From the NCBI RefSeq assembly GCF_048403405.1, contig NZ_CP183129.1: a DNA stretch of 64,000 bases. One strand, 5' to 3'. The translations under genes were made by a program, and so were the position numbers. Positions 4,716 to 37,685 of the stretch are shown in pieces; within the stretch, counting starts at the first letter, position 1; every line of letters begins with the position of its first letter. The notes beneath the pieces were generated by a model, which was given only the letters and a program-made list of their open reading frames with translations, was not told the DNA's origin and searched no databases. This stretch comes from Escherichia coli. Its GTDB lineage: Bacteria; Pseudomonadota; Gammaproteobacteria; Enterobacterales; Enterobacteriaceae.

Positions 4716-5654
4716 TTCCTCGCGCGTTGGCGCACAATCACCGCCCCGATGCCCGACAACCCACGACGCCACTGCATTGCCCAGTAATACGGCATCCGCC
4801 AGTGGCAGACCAGAGGCCAGCCCGGCAAGTACGCCACCTGCATGACTGTCGCCCGCCCCAATGGTGTCTACAACTTGCGTTGGAAATGCCGGAATGCAGC
4901 CAGAAGCGTCGTTGCTGAAATACCATGCGCCCTCTTTATCGAGACGAATGATCAACGGCGCGGCAAATTTCTCCTGCCATTGCTTGCCAAGTGTTGTTAT
5001 CTCTGCGGATAAAGCAAAACGTTCGGCGGCAATCTCAGCCTCCTGACGATTGAGTGACACTAAAGGTCGACAGGCCATGATCCGCGCCAGTAATGCGTCC
5101 GGGATATCGCCAATACGTGGGCCAAAATCGATAAACGGCGTCACGTCTTGCAGCTTTTCCAGCCATTCCACTAACAATTCGCCGCAGGGCGAGGCCAGTT
5201 GATAACCGGAAAAATAGAGCAGGCTGCCAGGTGCAACGGTTAATCGCGCCAACCATTGGCGATTCCACTGATTTTCCACACCGCTGAACGACATAAACGT
5301 GCGTTCACCATCCGGCTCAACCAGCGCCAGACACCAGCCGTTATCGCCTTCGGCGTTATCGATCAGGCTGATTAAGCCCTCTTTTGCCATCCGGTTGCGA
5401 ATAATCTCCGCCCACACGCCCTGACCGAGCGGCAAGGCATTACCCGCTTCGATGCCGAGGCGCTTTAACGCCACGACAATATTCAGTGCGCAGCCGCCAA
5501 CGTTAACGCTCTGCTGTTTCAGTTCGATATCGCACCCACGCCAGGGGAGGGCATAAGCGTCGGCGATCACATCAATGACCGCCGCGCCGACGACCATCAC
5601 CGACTGACGCGTGGTTAATTCAGGCAGCAGCGTGTGTAATCGAGCGCCGCTCAT
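4689..5654 (-). CDS. yegV: PfkB-family carbohydrate/nucleoside kinase, 321 aa
   Basis: ORF track; ribokinase-like motifs (DTIGAGD near C-terminus); matches YegV as recalled. Confidence 0.8.
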   Translation of the reverse strand: MSGARLHTLLPELTTRQSVMVVGAAVIDVIADAYALPWRGCDIELKQQSVNVGGCALNIVVALKRLGIEAGNALPLGQGVWAEIIRNRMAKEGLISLIDNAEGDNGWCLALVEPDGERTFMSFSGVENQWNRQWLARLTVAPGSLLYFSGYQLASPCGELLVEWLEKLQDVTPFIDFGPRIGDIPDALLARIMACRPLVSLNRQEAEIAAERFALSAEITTLGKQWQEKFAAPLIIRLDKEGAWYFSNDASGCIPAFPTQVVDTIGAGDSHAGGVLAGLASGLPLADAVLLGNAVASWVVGHRGGDCAPTREELLLAHKNV

Positions 5655-6655
5655 ACCGCCTCCCGTTGTTGACGATATTTCGCCAGCGCTGTGGCATAGC
5701 GGTTGAAATCAAGCTGATTTACCGCATCCAGTTCCGCCTTTAACGCAGGATCGATAGCGTTAACGCCATGCAACGCGCCACAAATTGCTGTCGCCATAGC
5801 ACCGATGGTGTCTGTGTCGCCGCCAAGGTTAGCGCACAGGACGGCGCAACGGTTCGGGGCGGTTTGTGCCAGTTCAACCAGCGCAATGGCGCACGGAACG
5901 GACTCAATAGTGCTGGTACCTGCGCCAACGACCTGGTAAAGCTGTTCGCTGGCGGATTCGGTGCCGTCGGCATTGCGCACAATTTTCAGCGCAATCTCCA
6001 GACGTGCTGCCAGTGAGGCGCTGAAGGTAGTGATGCGTTTTTGTTGAGCATGTCGCGCAATTGAAGGCAGTGAATCAACAATTGCTGACCAGCTTTCTCC
6101 GTCAATGGCACGAGAAATCGCCCATGCGATGACTACCGCCCCCGCAACCGCCAGATCGGATTTATGTGTCGGGCTGGAGGCCAGCGCCACATCATCAATA
6201 AAGGAATCAACATCACGCGCCGGAAGCAAACAACCTAATGGCGAGACGCGCATCGCTGCGCCGTTGGTCACGCCGTTATTTTCCAGTTCAGCAACGGGTT
6301 TACCGTCGCGAATGGCGTTAAGCGCAATCTTCGAGGTCGGACCTAGTACGTTTTTGTTAAAGGCGTCGAAACGCAGCGCCCAGTCGAGAATATTACGCCC
6401 AATCAGATCCGGATCGATCTTGCCTTCACGTTCCAGTAACGCATCTGCCAGACACAGCGCCATCGAGGTATCGTCGGTGAATTCGGCGCGGTTAAAATAA
6501 CAGGCTGCGTTATTCTCCTTTGGTCCAGGCAGAAAACGATCAATCCAGCCAAAGTGTGCTTTAACGCGGCTGCGTGGCCAAAGCTCGGAGGGCATCCCCA
6601 TCGCATCCCCTAACGCCTGCCCATAAAGAGCACCGAGAATACGTTCTGTTTTCAT
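5651..6655 (-). CDS. yegU: ADP-ribosylglycohydrolase-family protein, 334 aa
   Basis: ORF track; matches YegU as recalled; stop/start overlaps with yegV and yegT. Confidence 0.8.
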   Translation of the reverse strand: MKTERILGALYGQALGDAMGMPSELWPRSRVKAHFGWIDRFLPGPKENNAACYFNRAEFTDDTSMALCLADALLEREGKIDPDLIGRNILDWALRFDAFNKNVLGPTSKIALNAIRDGKPVAELENNGVTNGAAMRVSPLGCLLPARDVDSFIDDVALASSPTHKSDLAVAGAVVIAWAISRAIDGESWSAIVDSLPSIARHAQQKRITTFSASLAARLEIALKIVRNADGTESASEQLYQVVGAGTSTIESVPCAIALVELAQTAPNRCAVLCANLGGDTDTIGAMATAICGALHGVNAIDPALKAELDAVNQLDFNRYATALAKYRQQREAV

Positions 6656-30989: not shown

Positions 30990-31128
30990 AACGGGAAAGC
31001 CCCTCCCGAGGAAGGGGCCTTAAATAAGGAAAGGGTCATGATGAAGCTACTCATCATCGTGGTGCTCTTAGTGATTAGCTACCCAGCATACTAAGACTAC
31101 CAGGGCGGGGGAAACCCCGCTCTACCCT
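30990..31128 (-). ncRNA. Sib-family antisense sRNA (type I antitoxin), copy 1; ends approximate
   Basis: Minus-strand promoter-like TTGACA-17-TACTTT near 31135..31165 and hairpin gcccct/aggggc plus U-rich tail near 30995..31018; fully overlaps ibs copy 1. Confidence 0.5.
31038..31094 (+). CDS. Ibs-family type I toxin peptide, copy 1 (MMKLLIIVVLLVISYPAY)
   Basis: 18-codon ORF with SD aaggaaagggtc upstream; Ibs-like hydrophobic peptide. Confidence 0.75.
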   Translation: MMKLLIIVVLLVISYPAY

Positions 31129-31317
31129 CACTCCTGAAAGTATGCCTTCACGATAAGATTGTCAATCTGCAGGCTTTGCAGTCTGCGATCCTGCCAGCAA
31201 ATATTCTTTGCGAGACGTTACGCAATAATCACACTGGAAACTATTTTATCCGCAAGTCAGCGATAGACTGCATACAGGGCGAAAGGAGGTAAGCCGACGA
31301 TTTCAGCGGGACGCTGA

Positions 31318-31456
31318 AACGGGAAAGCCCCTCCCGAGGAAGGGGCCTTAAATAAGGAAAGGGTCATGATGAAGATACTCATCATCGTGGTGCTCTTAGT
31401 GATTAGCTACCCAGCATACTAAGACTACCAGGGCGGGGGAAACCCCGCTCTACCCT
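31318..31456 (-). ncRNA. Sib-family antisense sRNA, copy 2; ends approximate
   Basis: Same elements at equivalent positions in repeat unit 2. Confidence 0.5.
31366..31422 (+). CDS. Ibs-family type I toxin peptide, copy 2 (MMKILIIVVLLVISYPAY)
   Basis: Same position within repeat unit 2. Confidence 0.75.
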   Translation: MMKILIIVVLLVISYPAY

Positions 31457-31646
31457 CACTCCTGAAAGTATGCCTTCACGATAAGATTGTCAATCCGCAG
31501 GCTTTGCAGTCTGCGATCCTGCCAGCAAATATTCTTTGCGAGTCGTTACGCAATAATCACAGAGGAAACTATTTTGGTCACGCGTTAGCGATAGACTGCA
31601 TTCAGGGCGAAAGGAGGTAAGCCGACGATTTCAGCGGGACGCTGAA

Positions 31647-31790
31647 ACGGGAAACCCTCTCCCGGAGAAGAGGGCTTTTAATAAGGAAAGGGTTATGATG
31701 AAGCACGTCATCATACTGGAGATACTCTTAGTGATTAGCTTCCAGGCTTACTAAGAACACCAGGGGGAGGGAGAAACCTCTCCCTAACCC
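31647..31790 (-). ncRNA. Sib-family antisense sRNA, copy 3; ends approximate
   Basis: Equivalent position in unit 3; minus-strand TTGACA-17-TAATTT promoter-like element near 31800..31830. Confidence 0.45.
31695..31754 (+). CDS. Ibs-family type I toxin peptide, copy 3 (MMKHVIILEILLVISFQAY), IbsA-like but with an internal Glu
   Basis: 19-codon ORF in repeat unit 3; GAG codon read directly from sequence. Confidence 0.7.
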   Translation: MMKHVIILEILLVISFQAY

Positions 31791-31974
31791 TCACTCCTGA
31801 AATTATGTCACTCCGCCCTTAGTGTCAATCGACGGCTCTCCGTTCTTGCGAGGCGAATAGCAAAATTTTCTGCGCCGCCGGGCCTAATTCTGAAAGTTTC
31901 TTCGTTTGCTCTTATTTCATTATTGCAATCGGTATGATACCGGGCCTCAATAATTCTCTAAGAAAGGATTTCTT

Positions 31975-32634
31975 ATGAGCGAACAAATCACGTTTGCCAC
32001 CAGCGATTTTGCCAGTAACCCGGAACCACGTTGCCCCTGCATTTTGCTGCTGGATGTTTCTGGTTCTATGAACGGTAGACCTATTAATGAACTTAACGCC
32101 GGATTGGTTACCTTTCGCGATGAGCTGCTTGCCGATTCGCTGGCCTTAAAAAGAGTGGAACTCGGCATTGTGACGTTCGGCCCGGTGCATGTGGAACAAC
32201 CCTTTACCAGCGCCGCTAATTTTTTCCCGCCCATCCTGTTTGCCCAGGGCGATACACCAATGGGCGCTGCCATTACCAAAGCCCTGGATATGGTAGAGGA
32301 GCGGAAACGTGAGTATCGTGCAAATGGTATTTCGTATTATCGCCCGTGGATTTTCCTGATCACCGATGGCGCTCCAACCGATGAGTGGCAGGCTGCCGCC
32401 AACAAAGTGTTTCAGGGGGAAGAAGATAAGAAGTTTGCCTTCTTTTCCATCGGTGTTCAGGGGGCGGATATGAAGACTTTGGCACAAATCAGCGTTCGTC
32501 AGCCTTTGCCACTGCAGGGATTACAATTCCGTGAACTGTTTAGCTGGTTATCCAGTTCGCTGCGTTCGGTTTCCCGCTCCACGCCGGGAACGGAAGTTGT
32601 GCTGGAAGCGCCAAAAGGCTGGACGTCAGTGTGA
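31975..32634 (+). CDS. yegL: von Willebrand factor A (TerY-like) domain protein with MIDAS motif, 219 aa
   Basis: ORF track; DVSGS MIDAS motif at nt 32053..32067; matches YegL as recalled. Confidence 0.8.
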
Positions 32635-33392
32635 GCTGGCGTCTGGTCTATGCATCAACCGTTGGAACGTCGCACATCAGCGCGGACTTGCCTTGCCAGG
32701 ATGCCTGCCAGATGCAGGTTGCCTGGTTAAATGACCAGCAGCCATTATTGTCGGTATTTGTCGCCGATGGCGCAGGTAGCGTCTCGCAGGGTGGCGAAGG
32801 TGCGGAGCTTGCCGTTAATGAAGCGATGGCTTATATGATGCAAAAATTGCAGGGCGGGGAATTGGGGCTTAATGATGTCCTCGCAACGGATATTGTGCTG
32901 ACCGTTCGTCAGCGACTTTTTGCCGAGGCGGAAGCCAAAGAATTAGCTGTTCGCGATTTTGCCTGCACGTTTATGGGATTGATTTCATCAGCTAATGGCA
33001 CCCTGATTATGCAGATTGGCGATGGCGGCGTGGTGGTAGATTTGGGGCACGGTCTGCAACTGCCGCTCACGCCGATGGTAGGTGAATATGCCAATATGAC
33101 ACACTTCATTACTGATGAAGATGCCGTTTCCAGACTGGAAACTTTCACCAGCACTGAGCGTGCGCATAAAGTTGCAGCATTTACGGATGGTATCCAGCGG
33201 CTGGCGTTAAATATGCTGGATAATTCTCCCCATGTGCCTTTCTTTACCCCGTTTTTCAATGGGCTGGCGTCAGCAACGCAGGAACAACTCGATTTATTAC
33301 CTGAATTGTTAAAGCAGTTTTTGTCCAGCCCGGCGGTAAACGAGCGTACGGATGATGATAAAACGTTGGCACTGGCGCTGTGGTTACCATGA
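32631..33392 (+). CDS. yegK: PP2C-family Ser/Thr protein phosphatase, 253 aa, GTG start
   Basis: ORF track; GTGA overlap with the yegL stop; PP2C-like Asp-rich motifs (VADGAGS, GDGG); YegK (PphC) as recalled. Confidence 0.8.
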
Positions 33393-35329
33393 AACCCACT
33401 TTATATACTGCTACTGGTGAGTGCGTTACGCCAGGCTGTGAACTGGGCAAAGGTGGCGAAGGCGCGGTTTATGATATCGAGGAGTTTGTCGATAGCGTCG
33501 CCAAGATTTATCACACGCCGCCACCCGCCTTAAAACAGGACAAACTTGCCTTTATGGCTGCGACAGCTGACGCACAGTTGCTGAATTATGTCGCCTGGCC
33601 GCAGGCAACGCTTCACGGTGGACGAGGCGGAAAAGTTATCGGTTTTATGATGCCAAAAGTTTCTGGTAAAGAACCGATTCATATGATCTATAGCCCGGCA
33701 CATCGTCGCCAGAGTTACCCTCATTGTGCGTGGGATTTTCTACTCTATGTTGCGCGTAATATTGCTTCATCTTTTGCTACGGTTCACGAGCACGGGCATG
33801 TCGTGGGTGACGTAAACCAGAACAGCTTTATGGTAGGCCGTGACAGCAAAGTGGTGTTGATTGATAGCGACTCCTTTCAGATTAACGCCAACGGCACACT
33901 GCATTTATGCGAAGTCGGCGTGTCGCATTTTACGCCGCCAGAGCTGCAAACCTTGCCATCATTTGTCGGCTTTGAACGCACCGCGAATCACGATAATTTT
34001 GGCCTTGCGTTGCTGATTTTTCACGTCTTGTTTGGTGGTCGGCATCCTTATTCCGGTGTACCGCTTATCTCTGATGCGGGTAATGCGCTGGAGACGGATA
34101 TTGCCCATTTCCGTTATGCCTACGCGTCAGATAATCAGCGACGTGGTTTAAAACCGCCGCCACGATCTATTCCGCTGTCGATGTTACCGGGCGATGTTGA
34201 AGCCATGTTTCAGCAGGCATTCACGGAAAGTGGCGTGGCAACCGCGCGTCCGACGGCAAAAGCGTGGGTAGCGGCACTTGATTTACTACGCCAACAGTTA
34301 AAGAAATGTACCGTTTCGGCAATGCATGTTTACCCCGGTCATTTGACTGACTGCCCGTGGTGTGCGCTGGATAATCAAGGCGTTATCTATTTTATTGATC
34401 TCGGCGAAGAGGTCATTACCACCGGCGGTGATTTTGTGCTGGCGAAAGTCTGGGCAATGGTGATGGCGTCAGTAGCACCACCAGCATTGCAACTGCCATT
34501 ACCCGATCATTTCCAACCGACTGGCAGGCCGCTTCCTTTAGGCCTGTTACGGCGTGAATACATCATTCTGATTGAGATCGCACTGTCAGCGTTATCGCTG
34601 CTGCTTTGCGGCCTTCAGGTAGAACCGCGTTATATCATTTTGGTTCCCGTGCTGGCGGCTATCTGGATTATTGGCAGCCTGACAAGCAAAGCGTACAAAG
34701 CAGAAATCCAGCAACGTCGTGAGGCGTTTAATCGCGCGAAAATGGACTATGACCATTTAGTAAGCCAGATCCAACGGCTGGGCGGGCTGGAAGGTTTTAT
34801 CGCCAAACGGGCGATGATCGAAAAAATGAAGGACGAAATTCTCGGGTTACCGGAAGAGGAGAAACGCGCTCTGGCAGCACTTCATGACACTGCAAGGGAA
34901 CGGCAGAAGCAGAAGTTTCTGGAGGGATTTTTTATTGATGTTGCCTCTATTCCCGGCGTTGGCCCTGCGCGTAAAGCGGCGTTACGGTCTTTTGGTATTG
35001 AAACAGCCGCAGATGTTACCCGTCGTGGCGTTAAGCAAGTGAAAGGGTTTGGCGACCATCTGACCCAGGCGGTTATCGACTGGAAAGCGAGTTGTGAACG
35101 CCGTTTTGTGTTCAGGCCGAACGAAGCGGTAACGCCTGCAGACAGACAAGCGGTACTGACTAAAATGGCCGCCAAACGACATCGGCTGGAATCGACGTTG
35201 ACTGTCGGCGCGACAGAGTTGCAGCGATTCCGCCTTCAAGCTCCAGCACGGACCATGCCGTTGATGGAACCGTTACGTCAGGCGGCAGAAAAACTGGCTC
35301 AGGCGCAGGCTGAATTAAGCCGTTGCTGA
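33380..35329 (+). CDS. yegI: Atypical membrane Ser/Thr protein kinase with C-terminal helix-hairpin-helix region, about 646-649 aa
   Basis: ORF track; start may be 33380, 33383 or 33389, all overlapping the yegK stop; Gly-rich loop GKGGEGAVY, VAKIY Lys, HGHVVGDVNQN catalytic-loop-like, DSDSF; two predicted TM helices; HhH-like IPGVGPARKAALRSFGI. Confidence 0.8.
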   Translation: MVTMKPTLYTATGECVTPGCELGKGGEGAVYDIEEFVDSVAKIYHTPPPALKQDKLAFMAATADAQLLNYVAWPQATLHGGRGGKVIGFMMPKVSGKEPIHMIYSPAHRRQSYPHCAWDFLLYVARNIASSFATVHEHGHVVGDVNQNSFMVGRDSKVVLIDSDSFQINANGTLHLCEVGVSHFTPPELQTLPSFVGFERTANHDNFGLALLIFHVLFGGRHPYSGVPLISDAGNALETDIAHFRYAYASDNQRRGLKPPPRSIPLSMLPGDVEAMFQQAFTESGVATARPTAKAWVAALDLLRQQLKKCTVSAMHVYPGHLTDCPWCALDNQGVIYFIDLGEEVITTGGDFVLAKVWAMVMASVAPPALQLPLPDHFQPTGRPLPLGLLRREYIILIEIALSALSLLLCGLQVEPRYIILVPVLAAIWIIGSLTSKAYKAEIQQRREAFNRAKMDYDHLVSQIQRLGGLEGFIAKRAMIEKMKDEILGLPEEEKRALAALHDTARERQKQKFLEGFFIDVASIPGVGPARKAALRSFGIETAADVTRRGVKQVKGFGDHLTQAVIDWKASCERRFVFRPNEAVTPADRQAVLTKMAAKRHRLESTLTVGATELQRFRLQAPARTMPLMEPLRQAAEKLAQAQAELSRC

Positions 35330-35341
35330 GCCAGTTTTCAA

Positions 35342-36694
35342 TTAACGAAACACCACTTCCGCCCAGCGTGCCAGCCCGGCGGTGACGGAGCCAAAGTCAT
35401 CGCCGCCTGCAATCGGAATGCCCGGCAACTGTTCTGCCAGCGCCTTTTTAATCAGCGGTGAACGGGCGCTACCGCCGGTCAGGTAGATAACGTCCGGTTT
35501 TTCCTGGGCGTTATCCAGGGCCAGTTGCACCTGTTCCAGAATCCGCGCCAGTGGCTGGCTGAGGGCGCTTTCCAGCCCTTGCTGGCTAATCAGCGTAGCC
35601 AGTTCATCGCTGATAAACGGCAGTGAGGCGCGGGTTTCCGCTACGCTTGAAAGCGCAATTTTGCTCTCTTCTGCGCTACGTACCAGGCGATAGCTTAAAC
35701 GCTGACGCCAGACTTTCTGTAACAGGGCCACTTTTTCCGGTTCGCGGGCATCGCGTACCAGATCGTTAAGCAGACGACCGTTGGCACTACTGTAGAAATC
35801 ACTTTGCGCAGGGACGTCGTTGATGGCAACCGCATTCCACCACGGCAGAATCGGCAGGGCGATGCCTTTTTCGGTTTCGCCCCCCATGCCCAGTAACGGC
35901 ATCAGGTTTTTAAACGCCAGTGCGATATCCAGATCGTTACCGCCAATACGGCAACCACTGTGACCCAGCAGGCTGGCTTCACGATCGAGACGCGAACGCC
36001 ACTGCGGCCCCATCAGCAGCAATGAACAGTCAGTCGTACCACCGCCGATATCCACCACCAGCACCCGTTTTTCTTCCTGCAAGGTGGCTTCGTAATCCAG
36101 CCCAGCCGCGACCGGCTCGTACTGGAATACCACATCCTTAAACCCGGCACGCTTCGCCGCGCGTTCCAGAATCCCCTGCGCCTGGGTGTTTGCTTCATCG
36201 CCGCCAAGCCCCTGGAAGTTGATAGGGCGACCAATTACCGCCTGAGTAATCGCATCCGGCAGCTGTGCCTGCGCCTGCTGGCGAATGTGCAACATCATTG
36301 CGCAGACCAGATCCTCAAACAGCGCTACCTGCTGCGGTTTTAAGCCGCTGGCACCGAGGAACGATTTTGGTGATTTCACAAACCACACTTCTTCTGGATC
36401 ATCAATGTACTGTGCCAGTGAGGAAAGACCGAACTGCACGCTTTTCGCCGTAACATCGATATCTTCTTCGCGGTTATAACGAATCGCCCGACGCAACAGC
36501 GCCTGCGTTTCATCGTCGTCTGCCGGAACATCATGATGGCGGTACAGCCATTCGCTTACCGCTTCACGCGTTGGCGCGCAAAGCATTGAAGGCAGCAGCG
36601 TGCTGTCGTTTTCCATTTTCAGTAATTGCGGCTTACCGTCGCGCATGACCGCCACTGAACAGTTTGCTGTACCGTAATCAAAACCAATAAACAC
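35342..36694 (-). CDS. yegD: Hsp70/actin-fold ATPase-domain protein, 450 aa, GTG start
   Basis: ORF 35342..36757; start moved to GTG (VFIGFDYGTANC) to match YegD length as recalled; convergent with yegI with a 12-bp gap. Confidence 0.8.
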   Translation of the reverse strand: MFIGFDYGTANCSVAVMRDGKPQLLKMENDSTLLPSMLCAPTREAVSEWLYRHHDVPADDDETQALLRRAIRYNREEDIDVTAKSVQFGLSSLAQYIDDPEEVWFVKSPKSFLGASGLKPQQVALFEDLVCAMMLHIRQQAQAQLPDAITQAVIGRPINFQGLGGDEANTQAQGILERAAKRAGFKDVVFQYEPVAAGLDYEATLQEEKRVLVVDIGGGTTDCSLLLMGPQWRSRLDREASLLGHSGCRIGGNDLDIALAFKNLMPLLGMGGETEKGIALPILPWWNAVAINDVPAQSDFYSSANGRLLNDLVRDAREPEKVALLQKVWRQRLSYRLVRSAEESKIALSSVAETRASLPFISDELATLISQQGLESALSQPLARILEQVQLALDNAQEKPDVIYLTGGSARSPLIKKALAEQLPGIPIAGGDDFGSVTAGLARWAEVVFR

Positions 36695-36766
36695 GAAATA
36701 ATCCCCATGCCGGTGAAGAAGGGGCGTGACTTTAGCGAAATGTTGCCGTCGCGACAACCGGAATAT

Positions 36767-36779
36767 GAAAGCAAAGCGT
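36767..36779 (+). promoter_or_regulatory. Ada-box-like motif (aaagcaaagcgta) upstream of alkA
   Basis: Read from sequence about 50 bp upstream of the alkA ATG; alkA is Ada-regulated in E. coli; exact consensus match not verified. Confidence 0.35.
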
Positions 36780-36827
36780 AGCGTCTGAATAACGTTTATG
36801 CTGAAAGCGGATTAACAAGGAGATGCG

Positions 36828-37685
36828 ATGTATACCCTGAACTGGCAGCCGCCGTATGACTGGTCGTGGATGTTGGGATTTCTCGCCGCCCGTGCGGTGA
36901 ACGGTGTGGAAACGGTCGCTGACGATTATTATGCCCGTAGTCTGGCGGTGGGCGAATATCGCGGCGTGGTGACTGCTATTCCGGATATAGCCCGCCATAC
37001 TCTGCACATAAATTTAAGTGCAGGTTTAGAACCTGTTGCCGCAGAGTGTCTGGCGAAAATGAGCCGCCTGTTTGATCTGCAATGTAACCCGCAGATTGTT
37101 AACGGTGCGTTGGGCAAGTTAGGCGCGGCGCGGCCCGGATTGCGTTTACCCGGCAGTGTTGATGCTTTTGAGCAGGGCGTGCGGGCGATTTTAGGCCAAC
37201 TGGTGAGCGTGGCGATGGCGGCAAAATTGACCGCCAGAGTGGCACAGCTTTATGGCGAACGGCTGGATGATTTTCCGGATTATGTCTGCTTCCCCACGCC
37301 TCAGCGGCTGGCAGCAGCCGACCCGCAGGCATTAAAAGCGTTAGGTATGCCGTTGAAACGGGCAGAGGCGCTGATTAATCTGGCAAATGCGGCGCTGGAG
37401 GGCACCTTACCAATGACAATTCCGGGCGACGTAGAGCAAGCGATGAAAACGCTGCAAACTTTTCCGGGTATCGGGCGCTGGACGGCGAATTATTTCGCCT
37501 TACGTGGCTGGCAGGCGAAAGATGTTTTCCTGCCGGATGATTATCTGATTAAACAGCGATTTCCGGGAATGACACCGGCACAAATCCGCCGTTATGCCGA
37601 ACGCTGGAAGCCCTGGCGTTCTTATGCGCTGTTGCATATCTGGTATACGGAAGGCTGGCAACCAGACGGAACGGACGAATTGTAG
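36828..37685 (+). CDS. alkA: 3-methyladenine DNA glycosylase II, 285 aa
   Basis: ORF track; recognised AlkA sequence; C-terminus (…WQPDGTDEL) differs slightly from the K-12 protein as recalled. Confidence 0.9.
   Translation: MYTLNWQPPYDWSWMLGFLAARAVNGVETVADDYYARSLAVGEYRGVVTAIPDIARHTLHINLSAGLEPVAAECLAKMSRLFDLQCNPQIVNGALGKLGAARPGLRLPGSVDAFEQGVRAILGQLVSVAMAAKLTARVAQLYGERLDDFPDYVCFPTPQRLAAADPQALKALGMPLKRAEALINLANAALEGTLPMTIPGDVEQAMKTLQTFPGIGRWTANYFALRGWQAKDVFLPDDYLIKQRFPGMTPAQIRRYAERWKPWRSYALLHIWYTEGWQPDGTDEL

Follow-up and report, generated by a model that had tools for sequence, protein, structure and literature searches.

Gene organization at the yegL–pphC–yegI locus

The locus described here lies in a 64-kb (64,000-nucleotide) stretch of Escherichia coli DNA, hereafter the window, and comprises a triad of closely packed genes on the plus strand: yegL (31975..32634), encoding a vWA-domain protein; pphC, also named yegK (32631..33392), encoding a PP2C-type Ser/Thr phosphatase; and yegI (33389..35329), encoding a 646-aa protein reported to be a Ser/Thr kinase. 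The open reading frames agree with the annotation of strain GN02461, which is 100% identical to the window over positions 31000-37500 (most other complete E. coli genomes are 95-97% identical there). In Pfam searches YegL matches VWA at 8.7e-10 and VWA_2 at 2.4e-7, PphC matches PP2C_2 at 1.6e-50, and YegI matches no family; YegI does weakly match the PADLOC kinase models PD-T4-6 (2.3e-4) and MkoA.

The genes overlap at both internal junctions. The GTG start of pphC overlaps the yegL stop by 4 nt (GTGA), and the pphC stop overlaps the yegI start as ATGA (33389..33392, plus strand), an undisrupted version of the site at which K-12 carries yegJ; the PGAP annotation of GN02461 gives the same pphC/yegI overlap. 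yegI could instead start at an in-frame GTG at 33380, in which case the overlap would be 13 nt rather than 4 nt. Beyond yegI, a 12-bp spacer (35330..35341), equal in length to that of K-12, separates its stop from the convergent stop of yegD (35342..36694, minus strand), an HSP70-family gene by Pfam match and annotation that forms the conserved flank of the triad insertion site. The original prediction had given the same overlap (4-13 nt) and spacing (12 bp), and the reading frames and junction sequence bear it out. No promoter-like or terminator-like sites were found at the pphC/yegI junction, which, together with the overlapping stops and starts, argues that yegL, pphC, and yegI are most likely expressed as one transcript with coupled translation.

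Upstream of yegL are three tandem ibs toxin genes of the type I toxin-antitoxin Ibs family (31038-31094, 31366-31422, and 31695-31754). Their number varies by strain: two copies in K-12 and 8178, three in the window and O157:H7, and four in O121:H19.

The K-12 junction carries a 785-bp segment

In K-12 MG1655 the order is yegD, yegI, yegJ, pphC, yegL (yegI–yegJ–pphC being b2070-b2072), with yegJ (b2071, 153 aa, DUF2314) on the strand opposite to yegI and pphC, in agreement with the original prediction. The K-12 YegJ protein scores 2.2e-25 for Pfam PF10077, a match that concerns K-12 only because the gene is absent from the window: the best tblastn hit to YegJ anywhere in the 64 kb has an E-value of 1.8 over 11 aa, the K-12 785-bp segment finds no blastn match there, and the window pphC/yegI junction holds no scars of yegJ or of the AT-rich spacer that accompanies it in K-12. 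Pairwise blastn of the window against the K-12 region, a comparison of the kind proposed in the original prediction, recovers the same flanking genes and the same outer triad boundaries at 95-97% identity and a single break in colinearity, at which 50 bp of the window (33384..33433, plus strand; the last 3 pphC codons and the first 15 yegI codons) are represented by 785 bp in K-12. The overlapping junction of the window is thus not found in K-12, nor does yegJ lie elsewhere in the window.

The 785-bp segment has a G+C content of 37%, versus 52% for the region, and replaces coding sequence on both sides. On the pphC side the final three codons differ, WAE* in K-12 versus WLP* in the window. Between pphC and yegJ lies a perfect hairpin with an 11-bp stem (-19 to -22 kcal/mol), in which a strict scan found no intrinsic terminator, the T-run being missing. 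An AT-rich spacer of about 200 bp precedes the K-12 yegI 5' end (spacer and 5' end at 4936-5045 of the K-12 locus L001, with the sequence pattern ATGAARACAAATATAAAAGTATTTACATC), which encodes MKTNIKVFTSTGELTTLGR, a peptide that fits the family N-terminal motif xTxxGxxxxLGRELGKGGEG yet differs from the Escherichia form and is two codons longer than the window version (17 versus 15). The allele boundary on the yegI side is knife-edged, at GAACTGGGC; upstream of it, 51 nt in yegJ-bearing sequences align codon by codon with 45 nt in yegJ-free sequences at only about 63% identity, with 19 substitutions and a 6-nt indel. The ends of the 785-bp segment show no convincing sign of terminal inverted repeats or of target-site duplications; the best inverted pair, with 71% complementarity, is internal to it.

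In K-12, pphC and yegI are uncoupled by the opposite-strand yegJ, the hairpin, and the AT-rich promoter spacer. The insert contains 8 promoter-like sites versus 2.8 expected, and genomic SELEX has placed constitutive RpoD promoters for yegI and yegJ, along with H-NS, in the yegI<>yegJ spacer (PMC3946193). Since the insert brings both promoters and an H-NS-bound spacer, expression of the K-12 kinase probably does not depend on that of the phosphatase and is probably subject to silencing by H-NS.

That K-12 and B strains differ in layout is already known, and as a finding it is ordinary. The layouts of REL606 and MG1655 were shown side by side by Rajagopalan, Nagle & Dworkin 2018 (Fig. 4A; bioRxiv 10.1101/303594; J Bacteriol 2018), the ATGA overlap in REL606 and O157:H7 was reported by Rajagopalan & Dworkin 2020 (bioRxiv 10.1101/819920; FEBS Lett 2020), and a 2026 RNA Biology paper states that yegJ occurs only in K strains (PMC13232886). 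What is new here is the polarity of the change, its breakpoints, and its frequency, with yegJ in about 36% of genomes and not limited to K strains. The window resembles E. coli B REL606 and O157:H7 in having yegI directly 3' of pphC with an ATGA overlap and no yegJ, and differs from them by point differences only, such as Cys for Arg at YegI residue 17, and by a pphC allele that is distinct in its hypervariable 5' half. The codon at that yegI position (33437-33439) is TGT (Cys) in the window, Arg in 7 of 8 other Escherichia sequences with the yegJ-free junction, and His in E69; Arg is also the commonest residue there across 75 homologues, in which the motif reads G-R-E-L-G-K-G-G just before the glycine-rich loop.

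Two alleles of the junction in E. coli

We compared a 300-bp query centered on the pphC/yegI junction with 5426 complete E. coli genomes. A contiguous, yegJ-free junction, defined as at least 80% of the query covered in one piece at 97-100% identity, is present in 3471 of them (about 64%), including O157:H7, in which one genome aligns through the window junction at 97%. The K-12 785-bp segment is present in 1934 of the 5426 (about 36%), at 94-100% identity and always at the pphC/yegI locus; among the matches listed, yegJ-bearing genomes matched the junction query only at positions 1-125 or 176-300, on either side of the allele-specific stretch. Carriers of yegJ include ST69 O15:H18, O121:H19, and K-12 derivatives, and non-carriers include O157:H7, O91, and 55989. 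The presence of yegJ in about 36% of complete E. coli genomes, among them ST69 and O121:H19, corrects the statement that the gene is confined to K strains (PMC13232886).

We aligned 13 sequences, five yegJ-bearing and eight yegJ-free, across the locus. Outside the allele-specific stretch the two classes show no fixed differences. Flanking sequences diverge as much within a class as between classes, by about 2-3%, with values of about 3% for yegL and 3' pphC and about 2% for the 300 bp of yegI that follow the boundary. Diversity within the yegJ segment is 3.1%, the same as in the flanks, and both classes share flanking polymorphisms such as GAGGAG/AATGAG. The layout difference is peculiar neither to the window strain nor to K-12; the presence or absence of yegJ is an old two-allele polymorphism, and recombination has completely reassorted its flanks.

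The 5' half of pphC (window 32631-33075) is hypervariable in E. coli, with 6-8% nucleotide divergence within each class versus 2-3% in the flanks, and the PphC of Escherichia lineage E69 is only 82% identical in protein. The activity of PphC reportedly differs between B and K strains, a difference that the hypervariable half fits.

The contiguous junction is probably the ancestral state

Two explanations had been offered for the missing gene, that K-12 carries an insertion splitting the operon or that the window strain has undergone a clean deletion, and the relatives of the triad separate them. PphC relatives were scanned in one genome per species, giving 79 loci, in 75 of which both genes could be delimited. 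The yegL–pphC–yegI order is kept in these 75, which span many phyla (Proteobacteria, Actinobacteria, Firmicutes, Planctomycetes, Chloroflexi, Cyanobacteria, and others; taxa include Burkholderiales, Pseudomonas, Frankia, and Paenibacillus), and the three-gene cluster moves as a unit across these distant taxa. Phosphatase and kinase genes lie close together in 74 of the 75 triads, with -34 to +92 nt between the PP2C stop and the kinase start, and the 4-nt overlap recurs in Klebsiella spallanzanii and about 18 further triads. The one exception, a Melainabacteria MAG (L070 6784-7977), has a same-strand 397-aa TPR-repeat gene between phosphatase and kinase. A YegJ relative was found within about 6 kb in none of the 79 loci.

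Polarity was read from these triads together with four non-coli Escherichia lineages, E. albertii, Salmonella, and Citrobacter. In the four lineages (E1V33, MOD1-EC7003, E. whittamii, and E69) the triad adjoins yegD and alkA, and the junction is contiguous with nearly the same 50 bp as in the window, the overlap being ATGA in the first two and GTGA in the last two. The 50 bp are more divergent in the more distant E. whittamii and E69, as vertical descent predicts. In Salmonella enterica and Citrobacter freundii the order is alkA–yegD–ibs–mdtA, and both the triad and yegJ are missing. In E. albertii, yegD is followed by ibs, also without yegJ, and between the ibs repeats and yegD is a scar made up of yegL codons 6-23 fused to the final 70 nt of yegI (CP099910.1, L102 7374-7433, matching window 31991-32043 and 35260 onward). 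This scar implies that the triad is older than the split between E. albertii and E. coli and indicates that E. albertii lost it through a deletion of about 3.2 kb. Because the outgroup Escherichia lineages have the contiguous junction, phosphatase and kinase genes abut throughout the family, and Salmonella, Citrobacter, and E. albertii have no yegJ, we take the contiguous junction to be ancestral and the yegJ-bearing form to be derived within E. coli.

The alternative, that the K-12 layout is ancestral in E. coli and that the window lineage lost yegJ with fusion of pphC and yegI, draws on the age and diversity of the yegJ-bearing alleles (94-100% identity), on their occurrence in backgrounds as different as K-12, ST69 O15:H18, and O121:H19, and on the close yegJ between yegD and mdtA in Superficieibacter described below. 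Such a deletion would have had to recreate an exact ATGA along with 15 yegI codons that match those of other Escherichia species exactly or almost exactly, thereby arriving at a tight PP2C/kinase junction that is the norm across the family. The yegJ-free form is moreover the majority form in E. coli (64%) and the only form in the four non-coli lineages, and the interval holds no yegJ in Salmonella, Citrobacter, or E. albertii. We regard this history as extremely improbable. A clean deletion in this strain, as originally proposed, is rejected, the yegJ-free junction being shared with the outgroups and normal for the family. The converse proposal, an insertion in K-12 that split the operon, finds support in both the outgroups and the architecture of the family, with the refinement that the event was not a pure insertion, since both gene ends were replaced as well.

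The closest triads outside Escherichia are in Burkholderiales (L006, L008, and L009) and a single Klebsiella species, K. spallanzanii (L007 2686-6055), with PphC 63-66% identical; the Klebsiella and Burkholderiales triads are not next to yegD. The patchy distribution of the triad suggests horizontal transfer.

A second yegJ at the same address

Among Enterobacteriaceae, a close yegJ was otherwise found only in Superficieibacter electus (GCA_002915575.1) and a related metagenome scaffold, with 75% amino acid and nucleotide identity to K-12. In both, yegJ (L082 5001-5462 and L083 5001-5462) lies in the yegD–mdtA interval in the K-12 orientation, without a triad. Blastn against K-12 with a word size of 7 matched only yegD, yegJ together with about 100-140 bp upstream of it, a sib-like patch, and mdtA, and the same search found no remnants of yegI, pphC, or yegL. 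Superficieibacter, with yegJ and no triad, and the window, with the triad and no yegJ, thus have opposite contents in the same interval. Across taxa, the yegD–mdtA interval holds nothing, yegJ, the triad, or both. Downstream of yegJ, L082 has SUKH, Tli3, and Imm52 immunity-type genes in place of mdtA.

This shared address raises the possibility that yegJ was already between yegD and mdtA when the triad arrived, the K-12 layout being a rearrangement or a triad assembled around yegJ and the yegJ-free form a replacement by an incoming contiguous triad. The interval and the orientation relative to yegD and mdtA are the same in K-12 and Superficieibacter, nucleotide identities are compatible with orthology (75% for yegJ, 79% for yegD, and 76.5% for mdtA), and the similarity reaches about 100-140 bp upstream of yegJ. 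However, both E. coli alleles have identical outer triad boundaries (the 12-bp yegI/yegD spacer and the yegL upstream region), which points to one triad insertion; the nearest outgroups, E. albertii with its triad scar, Salmonella, and Citrobacter, have no yegJ; and no single known rearrangement both puts a gene between overlapping genes and supplies a homologous kinase 5' end diverged by 37%. Because the nearer outgroups are without yegJ and the outer triad boundaries are common to both E. coli alleles, we do not think that yegJ was resident at the arrival of the triad, and we consider this history quite unlikely on the sequence comparisons, if somewhat less so than a deletion. Simple insertion leaves the shared yegD–mdtA address unexplained, and we keep a small probability for local rearrangement or for a functional link between YegD and YegJ.

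Origin of the yegJ-bearing allele

Our preferred reading, to which we give a probability of roughly 85%, is that the window retains the original uninterrupted operon and that the K-12 form is derived from it by a 785-bp module replacing 50 bp. An early Escherichia ancestor would have acquired the triad, in the yegD–ibs/sib–mdtA interval, and in the window lineage nothing would have been lost at the pphC/yegI junction. In one E. coli lineage the AT-rich module would then have replaced the 50 bp, bringing a new pphC end, the hairpin, yegJ and its upstream DNA of about 100-140 bp, the H-NS-bound promoter spacer, and a diverged yegI 5' end, and thereby uncoupling the kinase from the phosphatase and giving yegI its own promoter. 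Both alleles would have persisted in E. coli since, with recombination of their flanks.

As to the source of the module, we infer that recombination may have brought it in from a diverged triad in which yegJ already separated phosphatase and kinase, since identity at the yegI 5' end is about 63% beside flanks differing by 2-3%. No donor of the 785-bp module was found in the neighborhoods of eight YegJ relatives (among them P0017, P0016, P0023, P0094, P0026, P0011, and P0038), which belong to E. coli of the K-12 type (in some cases poorly assembled), show the Superficieibacter yegD–yegJ–mdtA arrangement, or are unrelated contexts. Outside the K-12-type E. coli contigs, these neighborhoods contained no triad and no DUF2314 gene beside a kinase, and no sampled triad has a DUF2314 gene between phosphatase and kinase. 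Because no split triad is among those sampled, the argument for import is the 51 nt of diverged but homologous kinase sequence, and given the polarity we hold the odds of this step to be about even.

With the same polarity, the change could instead have arisen in situ, yegJ entering as a fragment by illegitimate recombination and 17 yegI codons then diverging rapidly under selection for independent initiation. The absence of a split-triad donor among the 79 loci and the eight YegJ-relative neighborhoods would be expected under such a model, as would the lack of terminal inverted repeats or target duplications, and the AT-richness of the new yegI codons suits a start that is no longer coupled. 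However, evolution in place within one species would produce far less change than is seen: the 51 nt differ by 19 substitutions and a 6-nt indel and end sharply at GAACTGGGC, whereas the adjoining flanks differ by only about 2-3%. The new peptide also keeps the family motif. We consider an in-situ origin unlikely, though a more serious contender than deletion or a resident yegJ.

Under replacement of the junction by the module, K-12 carries a derived minority form and would be an atypical reference for work on YegI and PphC. With replaced gene ends, promoters, and an H-NS-bound spacer, expression and stoichiometry of the kinase and phosphatase probably differ between the allele classes, and the allele difference bears on the interpretation of the published PphC activity differences and of the recurrent yegI mutations reported from long-term evolution.

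Function and resemblance to TerY-P systems

PphC is a PP2C phosphatase (bioRxiv 10.1101/303594), and YegI is an autophosphorylating inner-membrane kinase with Hanks motifs (bioRxiv 10.1101/819920) that PphC dephosphorylates (bioRxiv 10.1101/303594, 10.1101/819920). Robust expression of the pphC–yegI locus was not detected under laboratory conditions (bioRxiv 10.1101/303594). YegJ binds RNase E, and its overproduction damages the envelope and induces yegD (PMC13232886).

The gene content recalls the TerY-P triad, composed of a TerY-like vWA protein, a PP2C phosphatase, and a Ser/Thr kinase, which the CoCoNuT preprint (PMC10542128) credits to Anantharaman et al. 2012, with TerY-P-like defense modules credited to Gao et al. 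2020 by the same source; a TerY-P triad island is described in H. pylori (PMC4978471). Like that triad, the window cluster is compact, with a PP2C gene adjoining the vWA gene, and its YegL carries a VWA domain; the third gene, yegI, encodes the reported kinase. Unlike TerY-P systems, it has no flanking tellurite-resistance or restriction genes. YegL and PphC match no PADLOC model at E <= 0.01, and the matches of YegI are only the weak ones to PD-T4-6 and MkoA, so we call the cluster TerY-P-like and not a defense system: its architecture is, as far as domain content and gene order indicate, TerY-P-like without membership in a defense family. We know of no defense phenotype for the yegL–pphC–yegI cluster. 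The vWA ternary conflict systems of Kaur et al. 2020 (PMC7159879), in which PP2C is mentioned just once, were also considered, and the cluster was not assigned to them.

A broader proposal, which we offer as speculative and unlikely to hold in full, is that the two layouts are a selected ancient polymorphism in which the TerY-P-like module would alternate between coupling and an uncoupled, promoter-independent state silenced by H-NS, the yegJ module deriving from an unsampled split-triad lineage and YegJ working with YegD. A partnership of this kind is suggested by the adjacency of yegD and yegJ in Superficieibacter and by the induction of yegD on yegJ overexpression in K-12 (PMC13232886), and if true it would explain why yegJ appears twice in the yegD–mdtA interval.

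In Escherichia sp. E1V33, a 1-nt insertion (L003, about 6025-6050) splits the yegI frame into two tblastn pieces, which suggests a pseudogene. Recurrent yegI mutations have also been reported from the long-term evolution experiment, whose B strain is yegJ-free. Taken together, the E1V33 frameshift, these mutations, and the deletion in E. albertii suggest that the kinase is often dispensable or costly.
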